In this document: positions 6,385 to 40,145 of the stretch, piece after piece
Layout of the letters: every line of letters starts with the position of its first letter
How positions within the stretch are numbered: position 1 is the stretch's first letter
Assembly (NCBI GenBank): GCA_041558415.1
Contig: JBFFEY010000001.1
Span: 89,630 to 153,629 of the forward strand
Length of the DNA stretch: 64,000 nucleotides
Source: Burkholderiales bacterium
GTDB taxonomy: Bacteria > Pseudomonadota > Gammaproteobacteria > Burkholderiales > SG8-39
Direction of reading: 5' to 3'
Program-made: the position numbers and the translations under genes
Notes under the pieces: generated by a model
Seen by the model: only the letters and a program-made list of their open reading frames with translations
Told to the model about the DNA's origin: nothing
Database searches by the model: none

Positions 6385-7653
6385 ATGGATAAGGTCGCCA
6401 TCGTCGGCGGCGGTCTCTGCGGGCTGGCGCTCGCCATGAATCTGCACGCGCGCGGCATCGGCTGCACGGTCTTCGAGCGCGCGGAGGAGATCCGGCCGCT
6501 CGGCGTCGGCATCACGCTGCTGCCGCATGCAATGCGCGAGTTCGCCGCGCTCGGCCTGTCCGAGGCGATCCTCGCCGCCGGCATCGAGAACCGCGAAAGC
6601 TGCTTTTTCAACCGCTTTGGCCAGCTGATCTACCGCGAAGACCGCGGCCGCTACGCCGGCTACCCGCTGCCCGAGGTCGGCATCCACCGCGGGCGGCTGC
6701 ACGGAATTCTGTACGCGGCGGCGCTCGCGCGTCTCGGTGCGGCGCGCATCCGCCTCGGCCACCAGTGCACGGGCGTCGAGCAGGACGCGCAGGGCGCCAG
6801 CTTGCGCTTCGTCTCGAGCGCGACGCAGGCGCCGCTGGCGCCCGCGCGTGCCGAGGTCGTCGTCGACTGCGAGGGCGTCAACTCGGCGCTGCGCGCGCAG
6901 TTCTACCCCGCCGAACACCTGGCCTTCGCCGGCATCAACACCTGGCGCGGGGTGACGCGCCACGCGCCGATCCTCACCGGGCGCAGCTACCTGCGCGTTG
7001 GCTCGCTGCGCAGCGGCAAGATGGTGATCTATCCGATCGTCGACGATATCGACGGCGACGGCAGCGGTCGGCAGCTGATCAACTGGGTCGCCGAGGTACA
7101 GCGCGAGGACTTCGCGCGCAACGACTGGAACCAGCCGGGCGAGTTGACGGACTTCATCGGCCTGTACGAAAGCTGGCGTTTCGACTGGCTCGACGTGCCG
7201 GCACTGATTCGCAACGCCGAGCAGATTCTCGAGTACCCGATGGTCGATCGCGATCCGGTCGATCGCTGGACCTTCGATCGCGTCACGCTCGCCGGCGACG
7301 CCGCGCACCCGATGTACCCGCGCGGCTCGAACGGCGCGGCGCAGGCGGTGATCGACGCGCGCACGCTGGCCGACTGCCTGGCGGCGGCCGTCGATCCGCG
7401 CGACGCGCTACGGGCCTACGAGGCGGCGCGCCGCGAGGTGACGGCGAAGATCGTGCGCACCAACCGCGCGCATCCGCCCGATTACATCATCGCCAGGGTC
7501 GAGGAATGCGTCGGCGACCGGCCGTTCGACGACCTGGAGCGCTACGTGACGCAGGAGGAACTGCGCGCGCTTTCCGAGAACTACAAGCGCATCGCCGGAT
7601 TCAGCGCCGCCGACGTCGCAGCGGCACCCGCCGCTCAGAACGTGCCCGGGTAG
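6385..7653 (+). CDS. FAD-dependent aromatic-ring monooxygenase family protein
   Basis: N-terminal dinucleotide-binding fold MDKVAIVGGGLCGLALA. GD....AHPMYPRGSNGAAQAIxDA-type motif of class A flavoprotein monooxygenases. Confidence 0.75.
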   Translation: MDKVAIVGGGLCGLALAMNLHARGIGCTVFERAEEIRPLGVGITLLPHAMREFAALGLSEAILAAGIENRESCFFNRFGQLIYREDRGRYAGYPLPEVGIHRGRLHGILYAAALARLGAARIRLGHQCTGVEQDAQGASLRFVSSATQAPLAPARAEVVVDCEGVNSALRAQFYPAEHLAFAGINTWRGVTRHAPILTGRSYLRVGSLRSGKMVIYPIVDDIDGDGSGRQLINWVAEVQREDFARNDWNQPGELTDFIGLYESWRFDWLDVPALIRNAEQILEYPMVDRDPVDRWTFDRVTLAGDAAHPMYPRGSNGAAQAVIDARTLADCLAAAVDPRDALRAYEAARREVTAKIVRTNRAHPPDYIIARVEECVGDRPFDDLERYVTQEELRALSENYKRIAGFSAADVAAAPAAQNVPG

Positions 7654-25566: not shown

Positions 25567-26484
25567 TCAGGCGGTGCGGCGCGCGTCGAGCCGCTGTACC
25601 GGTAAATCGAGACCCCCGATGGTGGCCGCCAGCTTCTCTACCGCCGCGGGGCGCGCAAAGCCCTTGCGCCAGGCAAGCGCGACGCGGCGCATCGGCACCG
25701 GCGCTACGAACTCGATCACCTTGACGAGGGGGTTGGCGTAGCGCGCGGTCAGTGCGCTCGCCGGCAGCACGCTGATGCCGGCGCCCGAGGCGACCATGCT
25801 GCGCAGCGTCTCGAGCGAGTTGCCCTGGCGCCCGGGCGGCGGCGGGCGCGTGAACTCGCGGCAGGCATCGAGTACCTGGTCGCGCAGGCAATGCCCGACC
25901 GGCAGCAGCAGCAGCTCGGCGGCATCGAGCGCGTCGGCGGCGATGGTCTTGCGCCGGGCAAGCGGGTGGCCGCGCGGTACCACCACCTTGAACGGCTCGT
26001 CGTAGAGCGCGCGCGTGAGGACGCCGGTTTCTTCGTACGGCAGCGCGAGTACGACGACGTCGAGCGTGCCGGCCCTGAGCAGGCCATCGAGCGCCGCGGT
26101 GGTGTTCTCCTCGATGTCGAGCGGCATCTCGGGCGCGCTGCGGCGCAGGGCCGCGACCAGGTCGGGCAGCAGGTAGGGCGCGATGGTGTGGATGACGCCG
26201 AGCCGCAGCGTGCCCTTGAGCGGGTTGCGGCCCTGCTGCGCCACGGACTTGACACGCGCCGCCTCCTCCAGCGTGCGGCGCGCCTGTGCAATCACCTCTT
26301 CGCCTGCCGGCGTCGTCTTTGCGCCGCGCCGGCTGCGCTCGAACAGCTTCACGCCGAGCTCGTCCTCGAGCTTGGCGACCGACGCCGACAGGCTCGGCTG
26401 GCTGACATGGCAGCGCTCGGCGGCACGGCCGAAGTGGCGCGTCTCGGCCACCGCGACGATGTAGCGCAGCTCGGTAAGGGGCAT
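25567..26484 (-). CDS. oxyR: LysR-family hydrogen-peroxide sensor/regulator OxyR
   Basis: HTH LRYIVAVAETRHFGRAAERCHVSQPSLS. Redox Cys pair in PVGHCLRDQVLDAC, matching the OxyR C199/C208 context. Divergent from a peroxiredoxin gene. Confidence 0.85.
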   Translation of the reverse strand: MPLTELRYIVAVAETRHFGRAAERCHVSQPSLSASVAKLEDELGVKLFERSRRGAKTTPAGEEVIAQARRTLEEAARVKSVAQQGRNPLKGTLRLGVIHTIAPYLLPDLVAALRRSAPEMPLDIEENTTAALDGLLRAGTLDVVVLALPYEETGVLTRALYDEPFKVVVPRGHPLARRKTIAADALDAAELLLLPVGHCLRDQVLDACREFTRPPPPGRQGNSLETLRSMVASGAGISVLPASALTARYANPLVKVIEFVAPVPMRRVALAWRKGFARPAAVEKLAATIGGLDLPVQRLDARRTA

Positions 26485-26595
26485 TGCAGTTTTAACGAAT
26501 ACCCCTTTGGGTTCGCATGCTGATAAACTCTCTCCCCGCGCGGGGAGGGGCCGTAGATTGTGGACATCGCATTCAACCCCCACACAGAACCAACC

Positions 26596-27330
26596 ATGCA
26601 GAACCAGGAAGGCAAGAAAGTCCCACAGGTCACGTTCCGCATCCGCGTGAACAACGACTGGACCAGCATCTCGAGCGACGACATCTTCAAGGGCAAGACG
26701 GTGGTGGTGTTCTCGCTGCCGGGCGCATTCACCCCGACCTGCTCGTCGACGCACCTGCCGCGCTACAACGAGCTCGCGCCGGCGTTCCGCGCCAACGGCG
26801 TCGATGCCATCGTCTGCGTCTCGGTCAACGACCCCTTCGTCATGAACGAGTGGGCCAAGGATCAGGACGCCGACCAGGTCATGCTGCTGCCGGACGGCAA
26901 CGGCGAATTCACCGAAAAGATGGGCATGCTGGTCGACAAGGCCGATCTCGGCTTCGGCAAGCGCGCGTGGCGCTATTCGATGCTGGTGAAGGACGGCGTT
27001 GTCGAAAAGATGTTCATCGAGCCGCAGAAGCCGGGCGACCCCTTCGAAGTGTCGGACGCCGACACCATGCTCGCCTACATCAACCCGCGGGCAAAGAAGC
27101 CCGATCAGGTGGCCATCCTGACGCGCGAGGGCTGCAGCTACTGCGCCAAGGCGAAGGCGCTGCTCGAGGAACTCGGCTATGCCTACGCCGAAATTCCGCT
27201 CGAGCACCGCACGCGCAGTCGCGCCGTCGGCGCCATCACCGGCCAGGGCACCGTGCCGCAGGTCTTCATCAACGGCAGGCACATCGGTGACTGGGAAGCC
27301 CTAGAGCACTGGGCGAAGAAGGCCACGTAG
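26596..27330 (+). CDS. Hybrid peroxiredoxin (Prx5-type) / glutaredoxin
   Basis: ATG at 26596. PGAFTPTCS peroxidatic-Cys motif and a C-terminal Grx domain with CSYC and TVPQVFI. 244 aa. Confidence 0.88.
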   Translation: MQNQEGKKVPQVTFRIRVNNDWTSISSDDIFKGKTVVVFSLPGAFTPTCSSTHLPRYNELAPAFRANGVDAIVCVSVNDPFVMNEWAKDQDADQVMLLPDGNGEFTEKMGMLVDKADLGFGKRAWRYSMLVKDGVVEKMFIEPQKPGDPFEVSDADTMLAYINPRAKKPDQVAILTREGCSYCAKAKALLEELGYAYAEIPLEHRTRSRAVGAITGQGTVPQVFINGRHIGDWEALEHWAKKAT

Positions 27331-29072: not shown

Positions 29073-30361
29073 CGGTTGCGCTGATTCTCGCTGGCCTGGT
29101 GCTGCTGCTGTTCACCGGGCTGCCGATCTTCGCCGGCCTGGCGCTGTTCGGCGGGGCGTTGCTGGTTGCCACCCAGGGCGGGCTCGGCTCGATCAGCGAG
29201 GTGATCTTCGGCGAGCTGAACCGTTATCTACTGGTGGCGATCCCGCTGTTCGCGTTCATGGCGCACGTCATGATCCGCGGCAGGATCGTCGACGACCTGT
29301 ACAACACCGCGTACACGCTGACGCGTCATCTGCCGGGCGGCGTGGCGATCGCCACGGTCGCCGCCTGCACGATCTTCGCCGCGATTTCCGGCTCCAGCGT
29401 GGCGACCGCGCTGACGATCGGGTCGGTGGCGATCCCGCAGATGATCCGCTTCGGCTATCCACCGCGGGCGGCCTACGGCGTCGTCGCCGCCGGCGGCACG
29501 CTCGGCATCCTGATCCCGCCCTCGGGCCCGATGGTGCTCTACGGTGTGGTCGCCGAGACTTCGATCGGTGGCCTGTTCATGGCGGGGCTGCTTCCCGGGC
29601 TGCTGATGGCACTCATCTTCTCGGCCTGGTGCATGGGCTCGACGGCGCTCGGCGCGCCCAGGACGCGGCGCGCGCCACGCGCCTCGCTCGGCGAGGCTGC
29701 GGTTGCGATCCGCAAGTCGCTCTGGGCGCTCTCGCTTCCGGTGTTCGTGCTCGGTGGCATGTACGCCGGGGTGTTCACCGCGACCGAGGCGGCGGCCGCA
29801 GGCGCCGCGCTCGCGCTCGCCGTCGCGACGCTCGTCTATCGCAGCCTTGGCTGGCGCGACATCTGGGACTCGGCGCTCGACGCGAGCCGCACCTCGGCGA
29901 TGCTGTTCATGATCCTCGCCGGCGCATCGGTGCTCGGCTTCGTGCTCACCAAACTGCGCATCCCACACCAGATCGTCGAGTTGGTGGTCGCCATGAACAT
30001 CGGGGTGGCCGGTTTCCTGGTTGCGATGATGGTGCTCATCGTGGTGCTCGGCATGTTCCTCGAGTCGATCGCAATCATCCTCATCACCACGCCGGTGATC
30101 CTGCCGGTAATGGCGCATCTCGGCATCAATCCGATCTGGTACGGCGTGCTGCTCACCATCAACCTCGAGCTCGCCATGATCACGCCACCGGTGGGGATGA
30201 ACCTGTTCACCATCAAGGCGGTGACGCAGGCGCCGATCGGCGAAGTGATCCGCGGGGCGCTGCCCTATGCGCTGCTGATGATCCTCTGTCTGGCGCTGGT
30301 GATGATCTGGCCGCAGATCGCGCTATGGCTGCCGGGCACGATGCTCAACATCCGCTCCTAG
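29069..30361 (+). CDS. TRAP transporter large permease (DctM family)
   Basis: 430-aa polytopic protein with DctM-like blocks (LVAIPLFAFMA, FAAISGSSVAT, PPSGPMVLYG). Confidence 0.9.
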   Translation: MTVALILAGLVLLLFTGLPIFAGLALFGGALLVATQGGLGSISEVIFGELNRYLLVAIPLFAFMAHVMIRGRIVDDLYNTAYTLTRHLPGGVAIATVAACTIFAAISGSSVATALTIGSVAIPQMIRFGYPPRAAYGVVAAGGTLGILIPPSGPMVLYGVVAETSIGGLFMAGLLPGLLMALIFSAWCMGSTALGAPRTRRAPRASLGEAAVAIRKSLWALSLPVFVLGGMYAGVFTATEAAAAGAALALAVATLVYRSLGWRDIWDSALDASRTSAMLFMILAGASVLGFVLTKLRIPHQIVELVVAMNIGVAGFLVAMMVLIVVLGMFLESIAIILITTPVILPVMAHLGINPIWYGVLLTINLELAMITPPVGMNLFTIKAVTQAPIGEVIRGALPYALLMILCLALVMIWPQIALWLPGTMLNIRS

Positions 30362-31638
30362 CCCGCCAGGGAGGCCATGGGCGGCGCATCGCCAGTTCGC
30401 TGCACGCGCGCCGGATACTCGGCGCGGATGTCGATGCGCAATTGCGCGTGCGCGGCGCGCAGCGCGGTTTCCGCCTCGGCTGGCCGCTCGGCGCGCGAAA
30501 AGATGAAGCCGAGGTAGCTCGAACCTTCCGGTGGCGGTGCGACGAGCTGCCCGCGCTCGGCCGAAATCGTGACCTCGCTGACGCCTGGCACGGCGCGCGC
30601 CGCCTCGAGTCCTTCAATACCGTGCAGCAGCCCGCGGCGCGGAATCGGGATCATCATCACGCCGGCGGCCTTCGCCCCAGGCTCGATCGCGAGCCGCTCG
30701 CCGAGCGCGCGGCGCAGGATGAGCGCTTCCAGGCTCTGGCCGAGTAGATGCGTTAGGGCGCGGCTGCACAGGCCGCCGATCGAGCGCGCGGCAACTTCGA
30801 GAAACCAGACGCCGCCCTCATTGACGCGCAGTTCGGCGTGCACCGGGCCTTCGCGCAGGCCGGCGAGCGCGCAGAGCTGCGCGGTCTCGGCGCGGATGTG
30901 CGACTGCAGTTCCGCGGGGAGCCGCGACGGCGTGACGTAAAGTGTTTCCTCGAAAGTCGGCCCGTCGAGGGGATCGGGCTTGTCGAACAAGGCGAGGGTG
31001 GTGAGCGCGCCCGCCTGCAGCATGCCCTCGAGGGCGAGTTCGCGGCCCGGAATGAATTCCTCGACCACGAGGCCGAGCGATTGTGCGTCACGGTCGGCGC
31101 GTGCCTGGATCGCGCGCACGCGCTGCACGGCGCGCTGGAGCTCAGCGGCATCGTCGGCGCGGATCACGCCGCGGCTCGCGGAAAGGCGCCGCGGCTTCAC
31201 GACCACTGGAAAGACGAGCTGCGGCAACAGCGCCTCGGGTTCGGCGTCGCTCGGCAGATGATGGAACGCCGGGCAGGGCAGGCCGTGGCGCCGCAGCAGC
31301 CCGCGAAACGCCAGCTTGTCGCGCAACACGCGCACCGCCTGCGCGCTGTTGCCGGCGAGACCGAATCGCGCGCAGAGCAGCGCCGCAAGTTCGAGTCCCG
31401 AATCGTCGACCGCCAGCACGGCGTCGGGTGCACGGCCGATCTCGCGCAGCACGGTGTCGGCCGCTTGCTCGGCGCGGTCGAAGTGCAGCGCCATGATCGG
31501 TGCCATGCCCCAGGCGGGCGCAAGCTGGTGGCAGTAATTCGCCGCTGCGACGATTTCGACGCCGAGCGCCTGCGCCGCCGCGCGGAAGTCGCGGTTGCGG
31601 TAGCCGGTTGTCGGCAAGAGCAGCAGGACGCGCTTCAT
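30358..31638 (-). CDS. ATP-grasp domain protein (carboxylate-amine / L-amino-acid-ligase-like architecture)
   Basis: ATG at 31638, 8 nt after the radical-SAM stop. 426 aa with a pre-ATP-grasp N-domain. FPVVVKPRRLSASRGVIRADD, VVEEFIPGRELALEG and ...HAELRV...FLEVAARSIGG are typical ATP-grasp blocks. Confidence 0.75.
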   Translation of the reverse strand: MKRVLLLLPTTGYRNRDFRAAAQALGVEIVAAANYCHQLAPAWGMAPIMALHFDRAEQAADTVLREIGRAPDAVLAVDDSGLELAALLCARFGLAGNSAQAVRVLRDKLAFRGLLRRHGLPCPAFHHLPSDAEPEALLPQLVFPVVVKPRRLSASRGVIRADDAAELQRAVQRVRAIQARADRDAQSLGLVVEEFIPGRELALEGMLQAGALTTLALFDKPDPLDGPTFEETLYVTPSRLPAELQSHIRAETAQLCALAGLREGPVHAELRVNEGGVWFLEVAARSIGGLCSRALTHLLGQSLEALILRRALGERLAIEPGAKAAGVMMIPIPRRGLLHGIEGLEAARAVPGVSEVTISAERGQLVAPPPEGSSYLGFIFSRAERPAEAETALRAAHAQLRIDIRAEYPARVQRTGDAPPMASLAG

Positions 31639-31646
31639 CGCGTCGC

Positions 31647-33134
31647 TCAGAACGACTGCAGCTGCTGTGCGGTCGGCTCGGCGCAGCAGTACCAAGGTTC
31701 GGAGAGGCGCGGAATCGGCGCGCCGAGGTCACCGGGCAGCGGCGGCCCGCCGCGGCCCGCAGCGGCGTGCGCCTGCTCCCAGATCGCGGCGAAGGCGTCG
31801 CGGCGCGCAACACTGTCGGCTTCGCAGTGCGCGACCAGCGCTTGCAGTTCCCGCTGCAGCCGGTCGACGCGAGCGTCGCGGTGCGCCCAGGGATAACCGA
31901 GCAGTGCCGCATCGAACGGTTGCAGCATCTCCCTGAAGCCGGGCAGCGCAAGCAGCCAGGAACCCTGCGGCACCAGTAGCCGGATCGTGAGCTGCACCGG
32001 CGGCACGCTCTCCACCAGCCGCAGCTGCACCAGGCGCTCGAGCAGTGCGAGGTAGCCCTCGAGCGTCGTCCAGGGCGTGAAGGCGACAAAGGTCGGTGCC
32101 AGGGCGATGCCGGCGGCGCGCGTCAGGGCCACCGCGCGGTCGAAGTCCGCGCTGCGGTGGTGCTTGTCGAGCAGACGGAGAATGTCGTCATCGACCGCTT
32201 CGACCGCGGACGTGATAAACAGACAGCCGCTGGCGCGCAGTTCCGGCAGCAGTGCGGCGTGATTGATCAGGTGCTGAATCTTGATGGTTGCGTCGAAGGT
32301 GACTTCCGGAAACGCGGCGTGCAGGGCGCGGGCCAGACGCAGGCCATGGGTGGGCCCGTTGAGGAAATCCGGATCGCCGAAGGAGATGTGCTGCGCACCC
32401 TCGGCAACCTGCTGCCGGATGTCTTCGATCACGATGTCCGGCGGCACGGCGCGAAAGCGTCCCTGGTAAACGGGAACCACCGGGCAGTGCCGGCACAGGT
32501 GTTTGCAGCCGCGGCTGCCTTCTGCAAAGCCGGCGACGCGCGTCGTGCCATCGGGCAGCACGAGGTGCGCATAGCGCGCCAGCCTCGGCAGCACGCTGCG
32601 GTCCGGCACCACGAAGCTGAGCCTGCGCACGGTCTCTTCCGGCGCGTCGCCTGCGCGCGTCGAGCCGGCATCCTGCAGGCGCCGGCACAGCTCGAGCAGC
32701 GCCGTCTCGGGCTCGGCGTCGAGCACCGTGTTGACACCGAGATCGCGCAGCAGCGCCGCGTTCATCGGCGCATACAGCCCGTAGGCGCAGAGCTCCGCCT
32801 GCGGCGCGAGCTGGCGGATGCGCGGCAGCGCCTCGATCGCGATACGGGTCGCGGTATGCATGCCGAGGGAGATCGCCACCACGCGGGCGTCGCGCAGTAC
32901 TTCCGCGTCTAGCGTCTCGAGCGACAGGTCGAGCGCGCGCACGACGAAGCCCGCCCGCCTGAGCTGCGCCGCGGGCTGGGCGAGCGCGAACGGCTGTCGG
33001 CCCAGCTCGTAGGGGTTGACGAGGACGACGCTGAGCGGTGCAGCTACTTCGCGCGCGGCCGCTGCGCGTAGGGCGCCGGGCCCGGCTCGCGGCTCGCTCC
33101 GGCCTCGGCCAGGCGACGGAGATAGTCCTGCCAC
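31647..33134 (-). CDS. B12-binding-domain radical SAM protein with a C-terminal CCAEP tail
   Basis: Radical SAM cluster motif CKHLCRHC (CxxxCxxC) follows an N-terminal Rossmann-like B12-type domain (VVLVNPYE...VVAISLGMH). C-terminus is ...EPWYCCAEPTAQQLQSF. I recall a RefSeq family named 'CUAEP/CCAEP-tail radical SAM protein'. Start uncertain: GTG 33134 or ATG 33176, both inside the DUF971 gene. Confidence 0.75.
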   Translation of the reverse strand: MAGLSPSPGRGRSEPRAGPGALRAAAAREVAAPLSVVLVNPYELGRQPFALAQPAAQLRRAGFVVRALDLSLETLDAEVLRDARVVAISLGMHTATRIAIEALPRIRQLAPQAELCAYGLYAPMNAALLRDLGVNTVLDAEPETALLELCRRLQDAGSTRAGDAPEETVRRLSFVVPDRSVLPRLARYAHLVLPDGTTRVAGFAEGSRGCKHLCRHCPVVPVYQGRFRAVPPDIVIEDIRQQVAEGAQHISFGDPDFLNGPTHGLRLARALHAAFPEVTFDATIKIQHLINHAALLPELRASGCLFITSAVEAVDDDILRLLDKHHRSADFDRAVALTRAAGIALAPTFVAFTPWTTLEGYLALLERLVQLRLVESVPPVQLTIRLLVPQGSWLLALPGFREMLQPFDAALLGYPWAHRDARVDRLQRELQALVAHCEADSVARRDAFAAIWEQAHAAAGRGGPPLPGDLGAPIPRLSEPWYCCAEPTAQQLQSF

Positions 33135-33445
33135 ATCTCCTCCTGGTGCAGGCCGTACTGGTACAGGAGGTCCCATGAATAGATTCCGGTGTCGTGACCG
33201 TCCGAAAATACGAGCTGGATCGCGTAGGTGCCCACCGGCTCGATATGCGTGATGCCAACGTCCTGCTTGCCGGTCTGCAGCACCTCCTGTCCCGGTCCGT
33301 GGCCGCGCACTTCTGCAGAAGGCGAATGCACGCGCAGGAACTCGCAGGGCAGCTGAAACGTTTTGCCGTCGGCGAACGAGATCTCCAGCACGCGCGACTT
33401 CTGGTGCAGCTTGATCTCGGTGGGTTGTGGGGAATTTCCGTCCAT
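33044..33445 (-). CDS. DUF971-domain protein (gamma-butyrobetaine-hydroxylase-N-terminal-like)
   Basis: ATG at 33445. 133 aa. Blocks LEISFADGKTFQLPCEFLRVHSPSAE and YAIQLVFSDGHDTGIYSWDLLY match what I know as DUF971. Confidence 0.75.
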   Translation of the reverse strand: MDGNSPQPTEIKLHQKSRVLEISFADGKTFQLPCEFLRVHSPSAEVRGHGPGQEVLQTGKQDVGITHIEPVGTYAIQLVFSDGHDTGIYSWDLLYQYGLHQEEMWQDYLRRLAEAGASREPGPAPYAQRPRAK

Positions 33446-33537
33446 ACCAGCTTGTGTCGAGGCCTTGGGCCGACACGCACTATAGCAACTCAAGACAGCG
33501 GCAAAGCCAGGGTTATTGCGGCGCGCTTCGGGCGCGC

Positions 33538-34530
33538 TCAGCCGCCCGCGGTGAAGCCTCGTGCGTACACGGACTCCAGCCGGTCGACGACCTCCGCCGG
33601 CAGGGGCCCCTGGGCCTCGGCCGCGATGACTTCCTCGAGGTGCGTCGGCTCACCGAGACCGACGACGAAGCAGGCGAAATCCGGATGCGCGAGGGCAAAG
33701 CGCAGCGCCGTCTGCGCGCGCGTGCCGTGCCCGGGGCCGAGCGCAGCGAGCGCGGCATGGGCGCGCTGCGTCTCGACGTCGAGCGCGCTTTTCTCGGTGA
33801 GCACCATCTCGCGCCCGTGACGCAGGTCGGTGGCGAGCACGCCGGAGGCGAAAACCCGGATGCCCATCATCGCCACGTCGTGCCGCGCGCAGGCGGCCGC
33901 CACGCCGGAAAAACGGTGCCCGCTCCAGCCGACCGGCATGATGCGCGCCGCGCTCGGGTTGAGCAGGTTGTAGTACACCTGCGCCGAGTCGAAGCGTCCG
34001 CTGTCGAGCGCGCGGACGATCGCCGTCGCCTCGCCCAGCGCGGTCAGCCCGATGAAACGCGTCAGGCCTTCTTTACGCATGCGCTCGAGGCCGTCGGCGA
34101 CGCCGCCCTTGCGCAGCACGTCCTCGACGCTGATGGCGCCCAGCACCCCGCTGCCGGTGCGCGCGCCGATCTGGTTGTGCAGCTGCAGCAGGTCCACCGA
34201 GTCGCGCTTCAGGCGGCGCAGGCTCTCATGCACGCTGCGCTCGATGGTGCCCGGGATGTCCGACAAGTCGTTTAGGTCGAGCCGCACCTTGGTCGAGAGG
34301 TAAGGCTTGTCCTCGACCTCGGCGAGCAGCCAGCCGAGCGCTTCCTCCGAGCGACCCTGGCCGTACAGCGGCGCGGTGTCGATCCAGTTGATGCCGGCGT
34401 CTAGCGCACGGCGCAGCACGCGGCGGCGCGTGTCGTCGTCGGCGAGGATGATGACGCCGCCGACGTAGCCGCCGCCGAACACGACCTGCGAGACCTTGAG
34501 GCCGGTGCGGCCGAACCGCCGATATTTCAT
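33538..34530 (-). CDS. Aldo/keto reductase family oxidoreductase
   Basis: MKYRRFGRTGLKVSQVVFGGG..., IDTAPLYGQGRSEE, LLQLHN: classic AKR blocks. 330 aa. Confidence 0.88.
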   Translation of the reverse strand: MKYRRFGRTGLKVSQVVFGGGYVGGVIILADDDTRRRVLRRALDAGINWIDTAPLYGQGRSEEALGWLLAEVEDKPYLSTKVRLDLNDLSDIPGTIERSVHESLRRLKRDSVDLLQLHNQIGARTGSGVLGAISVEDVLRKGGVADGLERMRKEGLTRFIGLTALGEATAIVRALDSGRFDSAQVYYNLLNPSAARIMPVGWSGHRFSGVAAACARHDVAMMGIRVFASGVLATDLRHGREMVLTEKSALDVETQRAHAALAALGPGHGTRAQTALRFALAHPDFACFVVGLGEPTHLEEVIAAEAQGPLPAEVVDRLESVYARGFTAGG

Positions 34531-34689
34531 GGACTCCCTTCCTTCAAGCGCTCACCATTAAATTTATATGTTTTAGTTCAATAACTTAATACTTTTTAAC
34601 GACGTTGCAGATCAACAACAACGAGCATCCCATTAATTAAACAAGGTAAATGGATGTTGACAGGGTGGCGCGACAAGCGCATTCTAGAG

Positions 34690-34810
34690 TCACTTTCCAG
34701 CGGCTCACCAAGAAGGCCGCGGAAACTGCCCGAAGTACCCTCCTCCTCCTCCTCTCGGGCTCCTCGGCAGAGACTGGCCCCTGGCAATAACCAGGGGCTT
34801 TCTTTTTTCT
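34690..34810 (+). ncRNA. Candidate small RNA (or leader) with an anti-Shine-Dalgarno CCU-repeat loop
   Basis: TTGACA at 34657-34662 with a weak -10 about 17-18 nt downstream. Hairpin 34700-34720. Hairpin 34728-34760 (GCCCGA/TCGGGC) has the loop AGUACCCUCCUCCUCCUCCUC. Strong terminator at 34777-34810. No credible ORF. The 5' end is approximate. Confidence 0.5.
34777..34810 (+). terminator. Rho-independent terminator of the candidate sRNA
   Basis: 8-bp stem GCCCCTGG/CCAGGGGC with loop CAATAA, followed by TTTCTTTTTTCT. Confidence 0.8.
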
Positions 34811-34931
34811 GCCCGCGGGTCAGACGAGCCGAGCGCGAACGCCGTGCAGCCGTCCGCGGCGACTGCATCGTGCGCCGGTTCTCGGGGGACTCGGTAGACT
34901 TTGCGCCTCAGCCCAAACGAGGAGTCGGACC

Positions 34932-35402
34932 ATGCGCGTTTTTCTGATCCTGGGGATCGCCGGTGCTCTGGTTTTGCTGTCGATCCCGTCACAGGCTCAA
35001 ATGGGCGGCCGCGGCATGATGCAGGGTGGCGGCATGATGGGCGGCCCCATGGCGCGTCACCGCATGGCGATGCACGGCGGCCTGCCTTCGGAATACGCCT
35101 CGAAGAAGAACCCGCTCAAGGCATCGGCGGACAACGTGGCCGCGGGCAAGGCGCTTTTCACGCAGAACTGTGCCGTCTGCCATGGCGCGAAAGGTGCGGG
35201 CGACGGCGAGGGCGGCAAGGCGCTCAACCCGCCGCCAGGCGACTTGCGCGGCCTGAGCCGCATGCCCATGGCGGGCGACGCGTTTTACTACTGGACGATC
35301 GCCGAGGGCGGCGCACCGGTGAAGAGCGCGATGCCGCCCTACAAGTCGGTGCTCAAGGAAGACGACATCTGGAGGCTGGTGCACTACCTGCGCACGCTGT
35401 GA
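34932..35402 (+). CDS. Monoheme c-type cytochrome with a Met/Gly-rich N-terminal segment
   Basis: ATG after GAGGAG. Signal peptide ...LLSIPSQA/QM. Mature N-terminus MGGRGMMQGGGMMGGPMARHRMAMHGG. Heme motif CAVCH with a distal MPPY. Confidence 0.85.
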   Translation: MRVFLILGIAGALVLLSIPSQAQMGGRGMMQGGGMMGGPMARHRMAMHGGLPSEYASKKNPLKASADNVAAGKALFTQNCAVCHGAKGAGDGEGGKALNPPPGDLRGLSRMPMAGDAFYYWTIAEGGAPVKSAMPPYKSVLKEDDIWRLVHYLRTL

Positions 35403-35472
35403 CGCCCATGCTGGTCCGACGGTCGCTGCCCGCGGAGGGCAATCGCTGATCGCGCTGCCGCAGCCCCATTGG

Positions 35473-36693
35473 CTGCGCCTTTTCAGTGTCGGCTCGCTGG
35501 TGCTCGCCACTGCGCTGCTGCCGGCGATGGCCGTCGGCGAGGAGACCGTCACGCCCGAGCAGCAGCAAGCGCGCAAGCGCGAGGCCGAGGCGTCGGAGGA
35601 CCCGCTCAAGCAGCGCCAGGCGGAGAAGGTCGACCGTCCGGATCTGTGGAGCGACGAGCCGAGCGGCGTTGACCTGTACGGCAGCGTGCGGTTGCGTTAC
35701 CGCAAGGCGGGCGGCGACACGGTGCTCGGCGACGGCGGCTCGCGCATCGGACTGGAGGCCAACTGGCAGTACCGCCCGCAAAGCTGGCTGCATGGTCGCG
35801 TCGAGGCGGGCTTCAACGTGCTCGATGCTTTCGACCGCGTGTTCAGTCCAGGCAGCCGCGGCGCAAGCGATGCTGCATTGATCACGCCGCGACTCTATTA
35901 CGCCGGCGTGGAAACCCCCAGGCTGATCGCGTCGTTCGGCAAGATATGGTCGACCTACTACCAGGTCACCGCCTTTACCGATTTGTTCGACAGTACCGGC
36001 GGCAGCGCATCGGGTACCTACAACGCACAGACCGACGGCGGCCCGAGCGGCACCGGACGCGCCGATTCGGTGTTGCAGACGCGCCTCACGGTCGACTGGT
36101 TCCCGGATTCGTTTCACGTCAAGCCGTTCGACATGAACGTGCAGTTGCAGTACGAGCGAAAGATTCCGAATGTCGAGGGCGCGCGCTACGGTCTCGCGCT
36201 CGGCATGAGCGCGGTGTTCAAGACGAAGGATGACACCGAGGTCGGCTTCGCCTACAACTACGCCGACGTGCGCGACGAGAACGCGCCCGCGGTGTCCGCG
36301 GCCGGCATCGACGGCGACGACCATGCGCTCGCGATCGCCGCGCGCCGCATCAGCGATCGCTGGTACCTGGCGAGCACCGTCGCGCGGCTGCTCAACCACG
36401 AGACCACCGACCAGAAGCTGTATGTCGATGCCTGGGGCTGGGAGCTGTACGCCCGCTACCGCCTGTTCGGCAAGCTGTGGGCGGTGGGCGGCTGGAACTG
36501 GCTCAAGCCCGATCGCGGACAGCCGCTCGCCGGGCTGTACCGTGTGAAATACGGCGTGCTTGGCCTGCGTTACTCGATCAAGGAGTTCCGCCGCCTCGTT
36601 TACCTCGAAGCGCGCTACGACAAGAGCCGCAACGCGGACGGTTCGCCGATCGGCGATAGTGCGGCCTTCGGCATCCGGTGGGATTTCGATTGA
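35473..36693 (+). CDS. Outer-membrane beta-barrel porin-like protein
   Basis: Alternating beta-strand pattern with Tyr/Gly-rich turns, ending ...AAFGIRWDFD. A charged coiled-coil-like segment follows the signal peptide. Start uncertain: CTG 35473 gives (M)RLFSVGSLVLATALLPAMA/VG, while GTG 35500 gives a truncated signal. Confidence 0.65.
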   Translation: MRLFSVGSLVLATALLPAMAVGEETVTPEQQQARKREAEASEDPLKQRQAEKVDRPDLWSDEPSGVDLYGSVRLRYRKAGGDTVLGDGGSRIGLEANWQYRPQSWLHGRVEAGFNVLDAFDRVFSPGSRGASDAALITPRLYYAGVETPRLIASFGKIWSTYYQVTAFTDLFDSTGGSASGTYNAQTDGGPSGTGRADSVLQTRLTVDWFPDSFHVKPFDMNVQLQYERKIPNVEGARYGLALGMSAVFKTKDDTEVGFAYNYADVRDENAPAVSAAGIDGDDHALAIAARRISDRWYLASTVARLLNHETTDQKLYVDAWGWELYARYRLFGKLWAVGGWNWLKPDRGQPLAGLYRVKYGVLGLRYSIKEFRRLVYLEARYDKSRNADGSPIGDSAAFGIRWDFD

Positions 36694-37319: not shown

Positions 37320-40145
37320 ATGGGAAGCCTGCGGATGCGGATAGCGATACTGGGACTTGCGCTTGCGGCGGCGCTCGCTGCGGCACCAGCCCATGCGGAG
37401 TGCGGTGGCTCCACGCAGTGCATCGCGATCGGACTGACGCCGGGCGACGCGGCGGTTGCGCACCACGGCGGACCGGCGCCAGCGACGCCGACCATGGCGT
37501 TCGGCAACCAGGTCACCGCGACGACCAGCGCGTCGCGGACGCTGTACGTCGCAGCGGTCCAGGGCGGTGTGGGAATGGCGACGCTCGGTCCGATCACGAT
37601 CACCGGAACGAACGCGGCGGAATTCACCGTCACCGGTGGCAGCTGCTCGACGACCAATGGGCCGGTGCACGGTGGGGCGAACTGTACGATTACGGTCGCA
37701 TTTGCGCCGACGAGCCTCGGCGCGAAGGATGCGACGCTGAACGTCCCGTTGAATCCGCCGCCCGGCTGCGGCGGCTGCATCACCGGCCGCACGGCGATGC
37801 TCACCGGAACCGGCGTCGATCCGCTGCCAGCGGCCTCGCCCGCAACGCTGACGACGGCGATAGGCACGCCGGCGACGCTCGATCTCGCGCCTTTCATCTC
37901 CGGCGCCAACCTGCTCGGGATCCGCATCACCGTGCCTCCGGGGAACGGCAGCGTGAGCGTGAGCGGCACGCGCGTGACCTACACGCCGAATGCCAATTAC
38001 GTCGGCAGCGATACGTTCTTCTACGAATCGTTCAACGCGATCACTGCGTCGGCGCCTGCTGCGGTGAGCGTGTCAGTGGGCAGTCGCGCCGACCCATCAG
38101 ACGATCCAAACGTCACTGGTCTGCTCGGCGCGCAGATCGCGACGGCGCGGCGCTTTTGGCGCGCGCAGATCTTCAATTTCCAGCGGCGCATGGAATCGCT
38201 CCACCGGAGTGCGCCGGCGCCTCGATCCGAGGATGGCGCGCGGCTCGCAAGTAATGCTGGGGTGGCGACGCAGCCGCCGACGATGACCGACGCGGGCAGC
38301 GGGATCGTCCCGACGTCGCTCCTGGCGCCGCTGTTGAGTGCGGCGAACACGCGCTCCCTCAGGCTGTCCAGCAGCGGCGACGGCGGCGACGGTGCGTCGC
38401 CACTGCCGCCGGGGACCGGGATCTGGATCGCAGGTAACGTCAGCTTCGGCAACCGCGATCAGGGGAGTGCGAGTGGTGGATCGCGCTTTAGCACCGACGG
38501 CATCAGTGTCGGCATCGACCGTCGTTTGAACTCGGCGCTCGCGCTCGGCGTCGGCCTCGGCTATGCGCGCGACGAGACCTCGATTGGGCTCGACGGAACG
38601 CGCAGCAAGGCGCGCGGCTGGTCGATCGCGGCCTACGGCAGCTACCAGCCCTTCGCCGATGCCTATGTCGATGGCCTGCTCGGCTACGGGGAGACGACCT
38701 ACGACAGCGTACGCTACGTTGCCGCGGCCAACGATTACGCTTCGGGCACGCGCAAGGGGCGGCAGCTCTTCGCCTCCCTCGCTGCGGGCTATGAGTTCCA
38801 TCGCAACGGCGTGCTGCTGTCACCCTATGCAAGACTCGACTACGCGAGCGATCGGCTCGGCGCGTTTACGGAAATCGGCGCCGGGCTGAATGCGCTGCGC
38901 TACTCGGGCCAGACGCTGCCGTCGCTGCAGCTTGGCGCGGGCGTGCGTGTCGAGTCGGTGCACGCGACGAACTTCGGTTGGGTGCGGCCGCGGCTACGTC
39001 TCGAATACCGGCACGACTTCGAGGGTGCGCGTGCAGCCACCGTGCGTTACGCCGACCAGTTCGCCGGCCCGACTTATTCCGTCACGCCGGCGGGACTGGA
39101 TCGCGATGCGCTCGTGCTCGGGATCGGCGGCGATTTCGTCTTGCGCCGTGGCTGGCAGCTGGGCATCGACTACCAGACCCAGTATCAATCGGGCCTCGAC
39201 AGCGCGCAAGCGATCCGCTTCTGGGTTGCGGCGGATCCGGAGGCGACCGCATCGCCACTCGGGTCGGTCGCATCGTCCACGCTGCTGGAAGATCCGGTGC
39301 GCGTCGAGGCGGGCTACGTTTTCGATGACAACGTCAACCGGGCGCGCAGCGCCGACCAGCTTTCGGATCACGTCTACAGCGCAAATGTGGCCAAAAGCAC
39401 GGTCATTCCGCTCACCGAGAATACACGCGCGATCCTGCGCGGCTTTGTCGGTGGCGAGAAGCTGCATAGGTTCTCGGGTCTCGATCACCTCACGGCCGGC
39501 GCGTACGGCGAATTCCAGTATCGCGCGTCGGGCGATATCGATGCACCGACTTTCGGCGTCTTCGGGCGCGCGGCCTACGAAGGTTACAGCTCTAGCCTAC
39601 GCGACGGGTTTCGCTACACGCTCGGCGTGAACGCGCGACAGGCAGTTACCGACCGTCTGGAGTTGTTCGGCGCGCTCGATGCCCGCTGGCGCAGCGCGCG
39701 CAATACGGTGTTCGATGGCACCGATTGGGGGGCGCGGCTCAATCTCGACGTTTCCTTCGACTGGGAGGGCACGCTTTACCTGGGCGGCGAGTATCGGCGC
39801 GGCGATGCCGTATCGAGCGGGCCACCGACGCAGGACAGCGCATCGATCGCGAAATCGCTGGTACCGGACGACGCCTATCCAGGCCGCCGATTGTTCGCAT
39901 ATCGCTTCGACGCGGAAACGGTTCTGTGGACCCTGGGCTACAACTGGCCGCTCGGGCCGCGCGACTCGATCGATTTCTCCTGGCGCAACGTTCGCTCGAC
40001 CGCGACGCAACAGCCGAGCGCGGCTCCCGGCGGAGTCTACGCGGGGCCGCCGAGCTACTATGGCGTCACGCTCGCGCCCGGCACGGGCGGTACGCAACGC
40101 TACCGCGTCAACCAGTTCTCACTCGTCTACTTGATGCGCTTCTAG
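37320..40145 (+). CDS. Autotransporter-like outer-membrane protein with Ig-like passenger repeats and an additional C-terminal barrel-like module
   Basis: ATG after GGAGGAG. Signal peptide MGSLRMRIAILGLALAAALAAAPAHA/EC. Passenger has Ig-like segments (TITGTNAAEFTVTGGSC...CTITVAFAPTSLGAKDATLNV; VSVSGTRVTYTPNANYVGSDTFFYES). Autotransporter beta-domain-like region (GIWIAGNVSFGN...AIRFW). A further roughly 300 aa ends in ...FSLVYLMRF. Confidence 0.75.
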   Translation: MGSLRMRIAILGLALAAALAAAPAHAECGGSTQCIAIGLTPGDAAVAHHGGPAPATPTMAFGNQVTATTSASRTLYVAAVQGGVGMATLGPITITGTNAAEFTVTGGSCSTTNGPVHGGANCTITVAFAPTSLGAKDATLNVPLNPPPGCGGCITGRTAMLTGTGVDPLPAASPATLTTAIGTPATLDLAPFISGANLLGIRITVPPGNGSVSVSGTRVTYTPNANYVGSDTFFYESFNAITASAPAAVSVSVGSRADPSDDPNVTGLLGAQIATARRFWRAQIFNFQRRMESLHRSAPAPRSEDGARLASNAGVATQPPTMTDAGSGIVPTSLLAPLLSAANTRSLRLSSSGDGGDGASPLPPGTGIWIAGNVSFGNRDQGSASGGSRFSTDGISVGIDRRLNSALALGVGLGYARDETSIGLDGTRSKARGWSIAAYGSYQPFADAYVDGLLGYGETTYDSVRYVAAANDYASGTRKGRQLFASLAAGYEFHRNGVLLSPYARLDYASDRLGAFTEIGAGLNALRYSGQTLPSLQLGAGVRVESVHATNFGWVRPRLRLEYRHDFEGARAATVRYADQFAGPTYSVTPAGLDRDALVLGIGGDFVLRRGWQLGIDYQTQYQSGLDSAQAIRFWVAADPEATASPLGSVASSTLLEDPVRVEAGYVFDDNVNRARSADQLSDHVYSANVAKSTVIPLTENTRAILRGFVGGEKLHRFSGLDHLTAGAYGEFQYRASGDIDAPTFGVFGRAAYEGYSSSLRDGFRYTLGVNARQAVTDRLELFGALDARWRSARNTVFDGTDWGARLNLDVSFDWEGTLYLGGEYRRGDAVSSGPPTQDSASIAKSLVPDDAYPGRRLFAYRFDAETVLWTLGYNWPLGPRDSIDFSWRNVRSTATQQPSAAPGGVYAGPPSYYGVTLAPGTGGTQRYRVNQFSLVYLMRF

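Follow-up and report, generated by a model that had tools for sequence, protein, structure and literature searches.

We analysed a window of 64,000 nucleotides (nt) from a Burkholderiales bacterium (assembly GCA_041558415.1, contig JBFFEY010000001.1, positions 89,630 to 153,629), in which a DUF971 protein, a radical S-adenosylmethionine (SAM) protein with a Cys-Cys tail and an ATP-grasp ligase are encoded together on the minus strand. A two-enzyme module of radical SAM protein and ligase occurs in many phyla, and this three-gene operon is its version in Betaproteobacteria. We consider it very probable that the unit DUF971-radical SAM-ligase and its link to iron-sulfur (Fe-S) factors are real. 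The best explanation of the whole, to which we give slightly less than even confidence, is a transfer reaction like that of ArsL, the radical SAM enzyme of arsinothricin synthesis, followed by ligation and tied to Fe-S maintenance. In the literature we found no publication that assigns a function to NF040546, the family of the radical SAM protein, or that describes its pairing with the ligase and the link of the two to YggX, DUF971, Nfu and SufT.

The case for the unit comes from gene order in two samples of loci. The first comprises 80 species-representative genome loci found via the radical SAM protein, with neighbors counted within 3.5 kb and 54 loci having at least 2 kb on both sides, and the second comprises 80 metagenome loci found via the ligase, 60 of which carry enough upstream sequence to be informative. 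The ligase is encoded near the radical SAM gene in 51 of the 80 genome loci and in 39 of the 54 with full flanks, while the radical SAM gene is present in 46/60 informative ligase-sampled loci, and no other partner of the radical SAM gene is as widely conserved as the ligase. The two genes adjoin in 18 of 19 Betaproteobacteria, 25 of 27 Acidobacteriota, both Methylomirabilota and the single loci from Verrucomicrobiota and Dormibacterota. Clustering of the neighbors over 83 loci returned the ligase, YggX, an ATP-binding cassette (ABC) transporter ATPase, zwf, DUF169 and suf genes as recurrent, and no recurrent methyltransferase was recognized among these clusters.

What tells most about function is that YggX, Nfu and SufT accompany the module across phyla. 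One or more of YggX, DUF971, Nfu, DUF59 and SufS are encoded within 3.5 kb in 53/80 genome and 48/80 metagenome loci, in at least seven different gene orders, and profile searches identified the helpers as YggX (NF003817/PF04362), an Nfu domain (PF01106) and SufT (TIGR02945). In related Burkholderiales, yggX (Pfam Iron_traffic; NCBIfam "oxidative damage protection protein") stands upstream of DUF971, and the upstream, same-strand position is shared by Betaproteobacteria, Methylomirabilota and Acidiferrobacterales. In Acidobacteriota, Verrucomicrobiota and Dormibacterota yggX is convergent and lies just past the ligase gene, and in a further arrangement yggX and the radical SAM gene face the ligase. 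Seven metagenome loci have a NifU/Nfu-domain gene between the radical SAM gene and the ligase, and in Arenicellales and other Gammaproteobacteria a SUF-associated DUF59 (SufT-type) gene stands, together with sufS, directly upstream of the radical SAM gene. Ligase loci without the radical SAM gene still show DUF971-ligase, ligase-yggX or sufS...sufT...nfu-DUF169-ligase arrangements. Nfu and SufT are recognized Fe-S carriers or auxiliaries (PMC8593673). This partnership, the full-length homology to ArsL and the alternation of cysteine and selenocysteine in the tail were not part of an earlier sequence-only reading of the same DNA, which had centered on a four-gene cassette. In about ten acidobacterial loci (e.g., L067, 12022-13545, and L078, 3380-5464), the yggX gene downstream of the module is itself followed by open reading frames (ORFs) resembling glucose-6-phosphate dehydrogenase and phosphoglucose isomerase, an arrangement that may be mere lineage synteny. 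In Escherichia coli, zwf and yggX are both regulated by SoxRS.

The DUF971 protein (133 amino acids [aa], ATG 33445 to stop 33044, minus strand) matches the whole of PF06155 (GBBH-like_N, model positions 1-85) at 117.9 bits against a cut-off of 22.8, and its relatives in the PDB, 2L6N and 2L6P, are both uncharacterized proteins. Its gene is located directly upstream of the radical SAM gene in 17/19 betaproteobacterial genome loci, and this adjacency is restricted to Betaproteobacteria. Among the ligase-sampled metagenome loci it occurs in 18/80, all within the half most similar to the window's ligase, and a homologue search with the window protein returned close relatives only. No fusions of DUF971 to the radical SAM protein were found among the 83 loci. 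Published fitness data show cofitness of DUF971 with Mrp, BolA and YggX, and tie it to resistance to cobalt and paraquat. In two metagenome loci (L095, 1702-3484, and L102, 4506-6248), DUF971 is followed by the ligase after a gap of ~85 nt with no radical SAM gene between them, and these ligases are 66% and 59% identical to that of the window, an arrangement indicating that the link between ligase and DUF971 is independent of the radical SAM gene. A 726-kb contig (L168) encodes a DUF971 protein 82% identical to the window's, next to an ORF of 380 aa (6420-7562) that, at 66% identity, matches just the radical SAM protein's first ~210 residues and then diverges, and no ligase is present there. 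Judged by these alignments, L168 looks like a decayed copy of the module with a truncated radical SAM pseudogene.

The radical SAM protein (495 aa, GTG 33134 to stop 31647, minus strand) scored 602.5 bits against NF040546, the "CUAEP/CCAEP-tail radical SAM (seleno)protein" family, over model positions 1-467 of 468 and above the cut-off of 500, which bears out the family membership that the sequence-only reading had recognized by name. The sole paper mentioning the family calls it uncharacterized (Haft 2022, bioRxiv 10.1101/2022.07.06.499078). Members occur in soil and sediment bacteria of many phyla, and our searches returned 490 homologous proteins at E<=1e-30 (50%-identity representatives) and more than 7,800 matches in a 90%-identity search. 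The second-best NCBIfam model was ArsL (NF040542) at 263.8 bits, under its cut-off of 450, and residues 35-445 are 33% identical to P0257, a protein scoring 477 bits against the same ArsL cut-off and ending in KRCCIKC. By sequence comparison, ArsL is the sole characterized relative, with homology over the full length. The window protein is nevertheless not ArsL, because it fails the ArsL score cut-off (264 vs 450), the ArsL tail motif and the genomic context.

Pfam Radical_SAM (PF04055) was matched at 47.9 bits (cut-off 29.5) across the CX3CX2C region, in which C210, C214 and C217 of GCKHLCRHCP (32484-32507, minus strand) are the predicted ligands of the SAM-cleaving [4Fe-4S] cluster. These three columns are invariant in an alignment of 35 family sequences, and that alignment has no auxiliary-cluster Cys motif besides the two-Cys tail. 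The protein consists of an N-terminal Rossmann (B12-binding-like) domain, the radical SAM core, a C-terminal helical domain and the Cys-Cys tail, and its AlphaFold model has a mean predicted local distance difference test (pLDDT) score of 91.6. Foldseek searches of the PDB with this model returned AprD4 (1.8e-18), TsrM (1.6e-15), OxsB (5e-15) and TokK (1.5e-9), with MgmA, MiaB and CysS also among the best matches. The B12-type N-domain that the sequence-only reading had proposed therefore stands as a fold match to class-B enzymes and does not stand as a Pfam assignment, since B12-binding (PF02310) reached 17.5 bits (E=0.0037) against a cut-off of 32.1 here and 21-31.7 bits, all under the cut-off, in relatives. 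As far as the model allows, the class-B likeness of this domain holds at the fold level only. AprD4 itself has a B12-type domain yet is not known to use cobalamin. No solved ArsL structure was present in the PDB, where AprD4 was the only sequence match. Two unusual family members were also inspected: P0185, an apparent fusion of radical SAM and ATP-grasp proteins, was rejected as its low-complexity middle looks like a frameshifted gene call, and the long member P0125 contains repeat insertions.

The tail of the window protein reads EPWYCCAEPTAQQLQSF, with two cysteines and no CCxxC, and EPWYCCAEP corresponds to residues 479-487. Both motifs pointed out in the sequence-only reading, CKHLCRHC and WYCCAEP, are thus present, the latter as W481-Y-C483-C484-A-E-P487 at 31674-31694 on the minus strand. 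In 35 diverse members the consensus is E-x-W-[FY]-C-[C/U]-A-E-P, with E479, W481 and C483 invariant. The window protein has the Cys form, while C484 is the selenocysteine position in other members: in 46 of 135 loci with a radical SAM gene this codon is TGA and the frame goes on as AEPT..Q, which is the signature of selenocysteine. We infer that the switch between Cys and selenocysteine at the second tail Cys marks the reactive residue that does the chemistry, and this residue is located where ArsL binds its substrate.

ArsL, whose partners are encoded in arsQML, resembles the window protein in its Rossmann-like N-domain, its CX3CX2C core, its C-terminal domain and its Cys-rich tail, which carries vicinal cysteines at an equivalent place. 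The tails themselves differ, as ArsL has three Cys in R-C-C-L-K-C whereas the window family has E-P-W-Y-C-C-A-E-P, with two thiols and selenocysteine in one third of the members, and the tail of the window family lies ~40 residues further from the core. The partners differ as well: ArsL works with ArsM, ArsQ and the ars operon, in contrast to the amino-acid ligase and Fe-S helpers found here.

Rarer neighbors hint at the atoms on which such a tail might act. One metagenomic protein (P0122; JGI metagenome 3300047160, 8.3-kb contig) is a radical SAM protein that scores 623 bits against NF040546 and carries a fused MerB alkylmercury-lyase domain; another MerB-like gene is close by. In Nonomuraea (L045, 12095-14594), the radical SAM gene is accompanied by a GCS2 carboxylate-amine ligase, an aminotransferase, two MerB-like genes and DUF169, and in Methylocapsa (L040, 162-944) a MerB-like gene lies 2.5 kb from the radical SAM gene. 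MerB-like neighbors amount to 3 cases in ~170, GCS2 and aminotransferase neighbors are also rare, and this rarity is the reason why all three were left out of the model proposed below. GCS2 occupies the place of the ATP-grasp gene in Nonomuraea, which supports a small-molecule ligation step. In Acidobacteriota, DUF169 (PF02596) recurs as an additional component of the module, and seven loci (L046, L049, L061, L068, L076, L096 and L161) carry it next to the radical SAM gene and the ligase or in the space between the two; one paper places DUF169 beside HgcA-like genes in Nitrospina. The MerB and DUF169 associations fit chemistry on soft atoms.

The ligase (426 aa, ATG 31638 to stop 30358, minus strand) matched Pfam ATP-grasp_4 (PF13535) at 104.3 bits (cut-off 27) and LAL_C2 (PF18603) at 63.9 bits (cut-off 29.4), while no NCBIfam model was above its cut-off. 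Its single sequence matched the L-amino acid ligase BL00235 (PDB 3VOT) at E=4e-37, and the family profile matched the same protein over its full length (positions 20-413) at E=1.5e-66, compared with 1e-24 for BacD and far weaker matches, ~1e-6, for RimK and LysX. The protein is, by homology, of the L-amino-acid-ligase type, in agreement with the earlier assignment. Its orthologous group has a mean column identity of 60% over 16 members from several phyla. BL00235 prefers Met as its N-terminal substrate, and Met can itself be regarded as an S-methyl 3-amino-3-carboxypropyl (ACP) amino acid. The known L-amino acid ligases (BL00235/3VOT, BacD and RizA-type) share full-length homology with the window protein, including LAL_C2, and, as ATP-grasp enzymes, couple one free amino acid to another; several attach an unusual "warhead" amino acid made by a neighboring enzyme. 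The window ligase, in contrast, falls in its own orthologous group and is encoded beside Fe-S maintenance genes instead of in antibiotic clusters. A ribosomally made and post-translationally modified peptide (RiPP) pathway is unlikely, as the earlier reading had argued, because the tight packing of the genes leaves no room for a precursor ORF and the ligase does not belong to the graspetide type; no RiPP or graspetide precursor gene was found in the unit, whose intergenic space consists of 8 nt and an overlap, and the only conserved small genes in related loci encode YggX, DUF971, Nfu and SufT, all known folded families.

ArsL cleaves the C-gamma-S bond of SAM, giving an Fe-bound ACP species, and passes this group to arsenite held by its three-Cys tail, in reactions that contained ArsL, SAM and dithionite only; it is a canonical-fold radical SAM enzyme whose motif is canonical, and so far the only one of that fold known to cleave SAM "the other way" (10.1101/2024.02.01.577332; 10.64898/2026.04.29.721666). 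We propose that the window's radical SAM enzyme would, like ArsL, reductively cleave SAM at the C-gamma-S bond, and that its flexible C483-C484 tail would present a soft nucleophile that captures the ACP group. Candidates for this nucleophile are sulfur or selenium (e.g., a persulfide) and a thiophilic metal or metalloid. The product of the transfer would be a gamma-substituted 2-aminobutyrate, which the ligase could then join, with ATP, to a second amino acid or an amine. DUF971 in the window, and YggX, Nfu or SufT elsewhere, may keep the enzyme's cluster and iron loaded, or may use the product. On either view the module is part of Fe-S and iron homeostasis, and antibiotic production is not its role. 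From homology, ArsL-like chemistry as such is doubtful, if a real possibility, for this enzyme. The most specific form of the proposal, in which an ArsL-type enzyme with a Cys-Cys or Cys-selenocysteine tail builds a sulfur, selenium or metal amino acid, and the ligase turns it into a dipeptide-like product that works with YggX, DUF971, Nfu and SufT, is unlikely to be right in all its parts.

Two better-known systems share parts of this logic. In LipA and MiaB, with NfuA and GrxD, a radical SAM enzyme is also coupled to Nfu-type carriers and auxiliary Fe-S factors (PMC8593673), but the carrier of LipA restores an auxiliary cluster that has been sacrificed, whereas the window family is without an extra Cys motif, and in our loci, unlike those systems, the Fe-S link extends to the ligase alone. 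Diphthamide synthesis by Dph2 and Dph6 is similar in logic only, as an Fe-S enzyme transfers ACP and an ATP-dependent amide formation follows; the proteins are unrelated, Dph2 lies outside PF04055, and the substrate is a protein histidine. To our knowledge, Dph6 is not an ATP-grasp enzyme.

Several observations weigh against an ArsL-like transfer coupled to ligation and Fe-S maintenance. NF040546 is an uncharacterized family, and at 33% sequence identity the same mode of SAM cleavage is not guaranteed. The tail offers two thiols where ArsL has three, no ars or arsM genes are found nearby, and the nucleophile itself is a guess. Adjacency of the ligase is limited to 2/17 radical SAM loci in Gammaproteobacteria and 0/6 in Chloroflexota, so the pairing is lineage-structured and the ligase may not be obligatory. 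In addition, yggX is absent from the window itself, and within Acidobacteriota some of the YggX adjacency could reflect inherited gene order and would then be non-independent.

Other explanations have to be weighed against the ArsL-like proposal. The enzyme could carry out an ordinary class-B cobalamin methylation or another 5'-deoxyadenosyl-radical reaction, with the ligase acting on the same small molecule at an earlier or later step, and the tail would then be a redox or hydrogen-atom-donating arm, like the C-terminal Cys-selenocysteine of thioredoxin reductase. The best fold matches (AprD4, TsrM, OxsB, MgmA, TokK and CysS) are indeed class-B or B12-domain enzymes, weak B12-binding matches exist both here (17.5 bits) and in relatives (up to 31.7), the CX3CX2C motif is canonical, and most radical SAM enzymes make 5'-deoxyadenosyl radicals. 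We still find ordinary chemistry unlikely: every B12-binding score stays below 32.1 bits, the closest fold match, AprD4, is not known to use cobalamin, and ArsL, by far the closest characterized relative, cleaves the other C-S bond despite its canonical motif and binds its substrate with a tail placed as this one is. Alternatively, the module could modify a protein, adding ACP to YggX, to another Fe-S factor or to the enzyme's own tail before an ATP-dependent amidation or ligation, as in diphthamide synthesis, where Dph2 precedes Dph6, or as when RimK and LysX act on small proteins whose genes are their neighbors. Dph2 is a precedent for ACP transfer onto a protein, the small proteins YggX, DUF971, Nfu and SufT recur beside both enzymes in several orders, and the ligase keeps a YggX, DUF971 or Nfu neighbor even where the radical SAM gene is missing. 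Those small proteins have four unrelated folds, however, as would be expected of helpers more than of a single substrate, a conserved acceptor motif was not identified, and the ligase aligns over its full length with free-amino-acid ligases and has LAL_C2, while RimK and LysX match at ~1e-6; protein modification seems to us distinctly improbable. That the module handles a thiophilic metal or metalloid that is toxic, such as As, Sb or Hg, is a reading we rate as quite improbable. The tail would bind the ion, as the C-terminal Cys pair of MerA or the ArsL tail does, the enzyme would alkylate it, and the Fe-S helpers would be nearby because metals destroy clusters. ArsL being the closest relative, the cobalt sensitivity of DUF971 mutants, the MerB fusion in P0122 and the MerB-like genes close to the radical SAM gene, two of them along with DUF169 in L045 and one in L040, all agree with metal handling, as do the recurrence of DUF169, itself seen by HgcA-like genes, between the radical SAM gene and the ligase, and the CU motifs noted in organometal and mercury proteins (Haft 2022, 10.1101/2022.07.06.499078). 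On the other hand, 3 MerB-like neighbors in ~170 are few, no ars, mer or efflux genes occur in the window's cassette or in most loci, there is no ArsM-like methyltransferase partner, and the genes occupy ordinary chromosomal settings (near leuS-lptE-holA, zwf or suf) across soil bacteria.

The sequence-only reading had instead described a ligation, radical-modification and reduction pathway of four genes, in which an aldo/keto reductase (AKR) encoded upstream of DUF971 would carry out the reduction and a convergent tripartite ATP-independent periplasmic (TRAP) importer would supply the substrate. The AKR gene is on the same strand, its stop is 92 nt from the DUF971 start with no terminator-like site in between, and in two Chloroflexota loci an AKR is found directly downstream of the radical SAM gene (L079, Anaerolineae) or nearby (L055, Caldilineaceae). 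These two loci are the only ones of the 80 from genomes, with none of the 80 from metagenomes, to have an AKR near the radical SAM gene besides the window lineage, and their proteins are 23-28% identical to the window's AKR. No AKR was found next to the module in other betaproteobacterial loci outside the window's own lineage, and related Burkholderiales carry yggX or unrelated genes at its position. DctM is encoded near the module in one other locus and DctP in none, and the TRAP operon, being convergent, cannot be co-transcribed with the cassette. The rarity of both leads us to conclude that the unit has three genes and that the AKR and TRAP genes are local neighbors, the AKR probably lying outside the module. 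Synteny thus upheld the DUF971, radical SAM and ligase part of the cassette (18/19 and 17/19 Betaproteobacteria) and not its AKR (2/160 other loci); it gave no support to the importer as a source of substrate, and it largely refutes the four-gene model, to which we now assign very little probability. Chance adjacency of four functionally unrelated genes is practically negligible as an explanation. The AKR and TRAP neighbors do appear incidental, but for the three-gene core chance is already refuted by the radical SAM-ligase pairing in 51/80 and 46/60 loci, in at least five phyla and several gene orders, together with the 8-nt spacing and the overlap, which indicate co-translation.

Should the most specific form of the proposal be correct, YggX and DUF971 would gain a first biochemical partner, and PF04055 would contain a second case of non-canonical C-gamma-S cleavage of SAM. 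YggX and DUF971 have had phenotypes for years and no biochemistry, and the conserved enzymatic neighborhood provides a testable handle on both. NF040546 is the much larger sister family of ArsL, so a shared chemistry would make ArsL-type cleavage common instead of a curiosity. The Cys/selenocysteine tail and the occasional MerB fusion point to possibly new carbon-heteroatom or carbon-metal chemistry. For annotation, DUF971, YggX, Nfu, SufT and DUF169 should be counted in the unit, and the AKR and TRAP genes should be left out.

The region 30358-34530 contains four complete ORFs, all on the minus strand, and Pfam searches confirmed all four proposed families, including the AKR (330 aa, 33538-34530; PF00248 Aldo_ket_red, 134 bits), for which no NCBIfam model scored above its cut-off. 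The tight packing described earlier was likewise confirmed from the DNA, with 92 nt between the AKR stop and the DUF971 ATG, an overlap between DUF971 and the radical SAM gene, and 8 nt from the radical SAM stop (TGA 31647-31649) to the ATP-grasp ATG; the last two features indicate co-translation. The overlap covers 91 nt (33044-33134, minus strand), shared between the 3' end of DUF971 and the radical SAM gene's predicted 5' end, and encodes a 33-residue extension. It exists because GTG 33134, with AGGAGGAG just before it, is the only usable radical SAM start: this is the sole start codon upstream of the conserved core, and no in-frame ATG, GTG or TTG is present between 33134 and the core (~33029). 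The same 495-aa radical SAM protein is called in the Burkholderiales metagenome-assembled genome (MAG) GCA_035458905.1, which has the same gene order and a DUF971 protein identical to the window's, and a 431-aa product is called in other assemblies. The N-terminal 33 residues are disordered in the AlphaFold model and missing from most homologues, whose matches start at query residue 35.

On the other side, the ligase gene ends stop-to-stop against the convergent dctPQM TRAP operon, in which the identities of DctP, DctQ and DctM were confirmed. At 30358-30361 the ligase stop codon (minus strand) overlaps that of dctM (plus strand), leaving no space for a terminator between the two operons. A scan of 30000-35200 returned no sigma-70-like promoters, and terminator-like sites in the same interval were no more frequent than in shuffled sequences, results that do not bear on co-transcription in either direction. 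An Rfam scan of 30000-35500 by E-value, covering riboswitches and leader RNAs, gave just one sub-threshold small RNA match, and a scan of eight related loci at the gathering threshold gave a tRNA and nothing else. The sub-threshold match, to RF02278 ("Betaproteobacteria toxic small RNA"), lies at 34746-34805 on the plus strand in the 401-nt intergenic region between the AKR and a cytochrome c gene, with 25 bits against a gathering score of 50 and E=0.076; a strong terminator-like hairpin at 34776-34799, with a T-run behind it, overlaps the match.

Within 5 kb, the neighboring genes are those for the AKR, cytochrome c, a porin-like ORF, DctPQM and a peroxiredoxin-glutaredoxin protein. A LysR-family regulator (25570-26499, minus strand; HTH_1 and LysR_substrate, with an OxyR-like N-terminus) is divergent from the gene for this peroxiredoxin-glutaredoxin hybrid (26560-27330, plus strand; Redoxin and Glutaredoxin), and the two form an oxidative-stress pair 3 kb from the cassette, with the TRAP operon in between. 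Upstream of the AKR are the divergent cytochrome c gene and the porin-like ORF, which encodes 397 aa (35500-36693, plus strand) with a C-terminal ...IRWDFD. This ORF had no Pfam match at E<=0.001, and its position is conserved in GCA_035458905.1. Farther along, at 37320-40145 on the plus strand, is an ORF of 941 aa whose counterpart in the same MAG is annotated as an Autotransporter beta-domain protein (PF03797), with weak Big_9 repeats.

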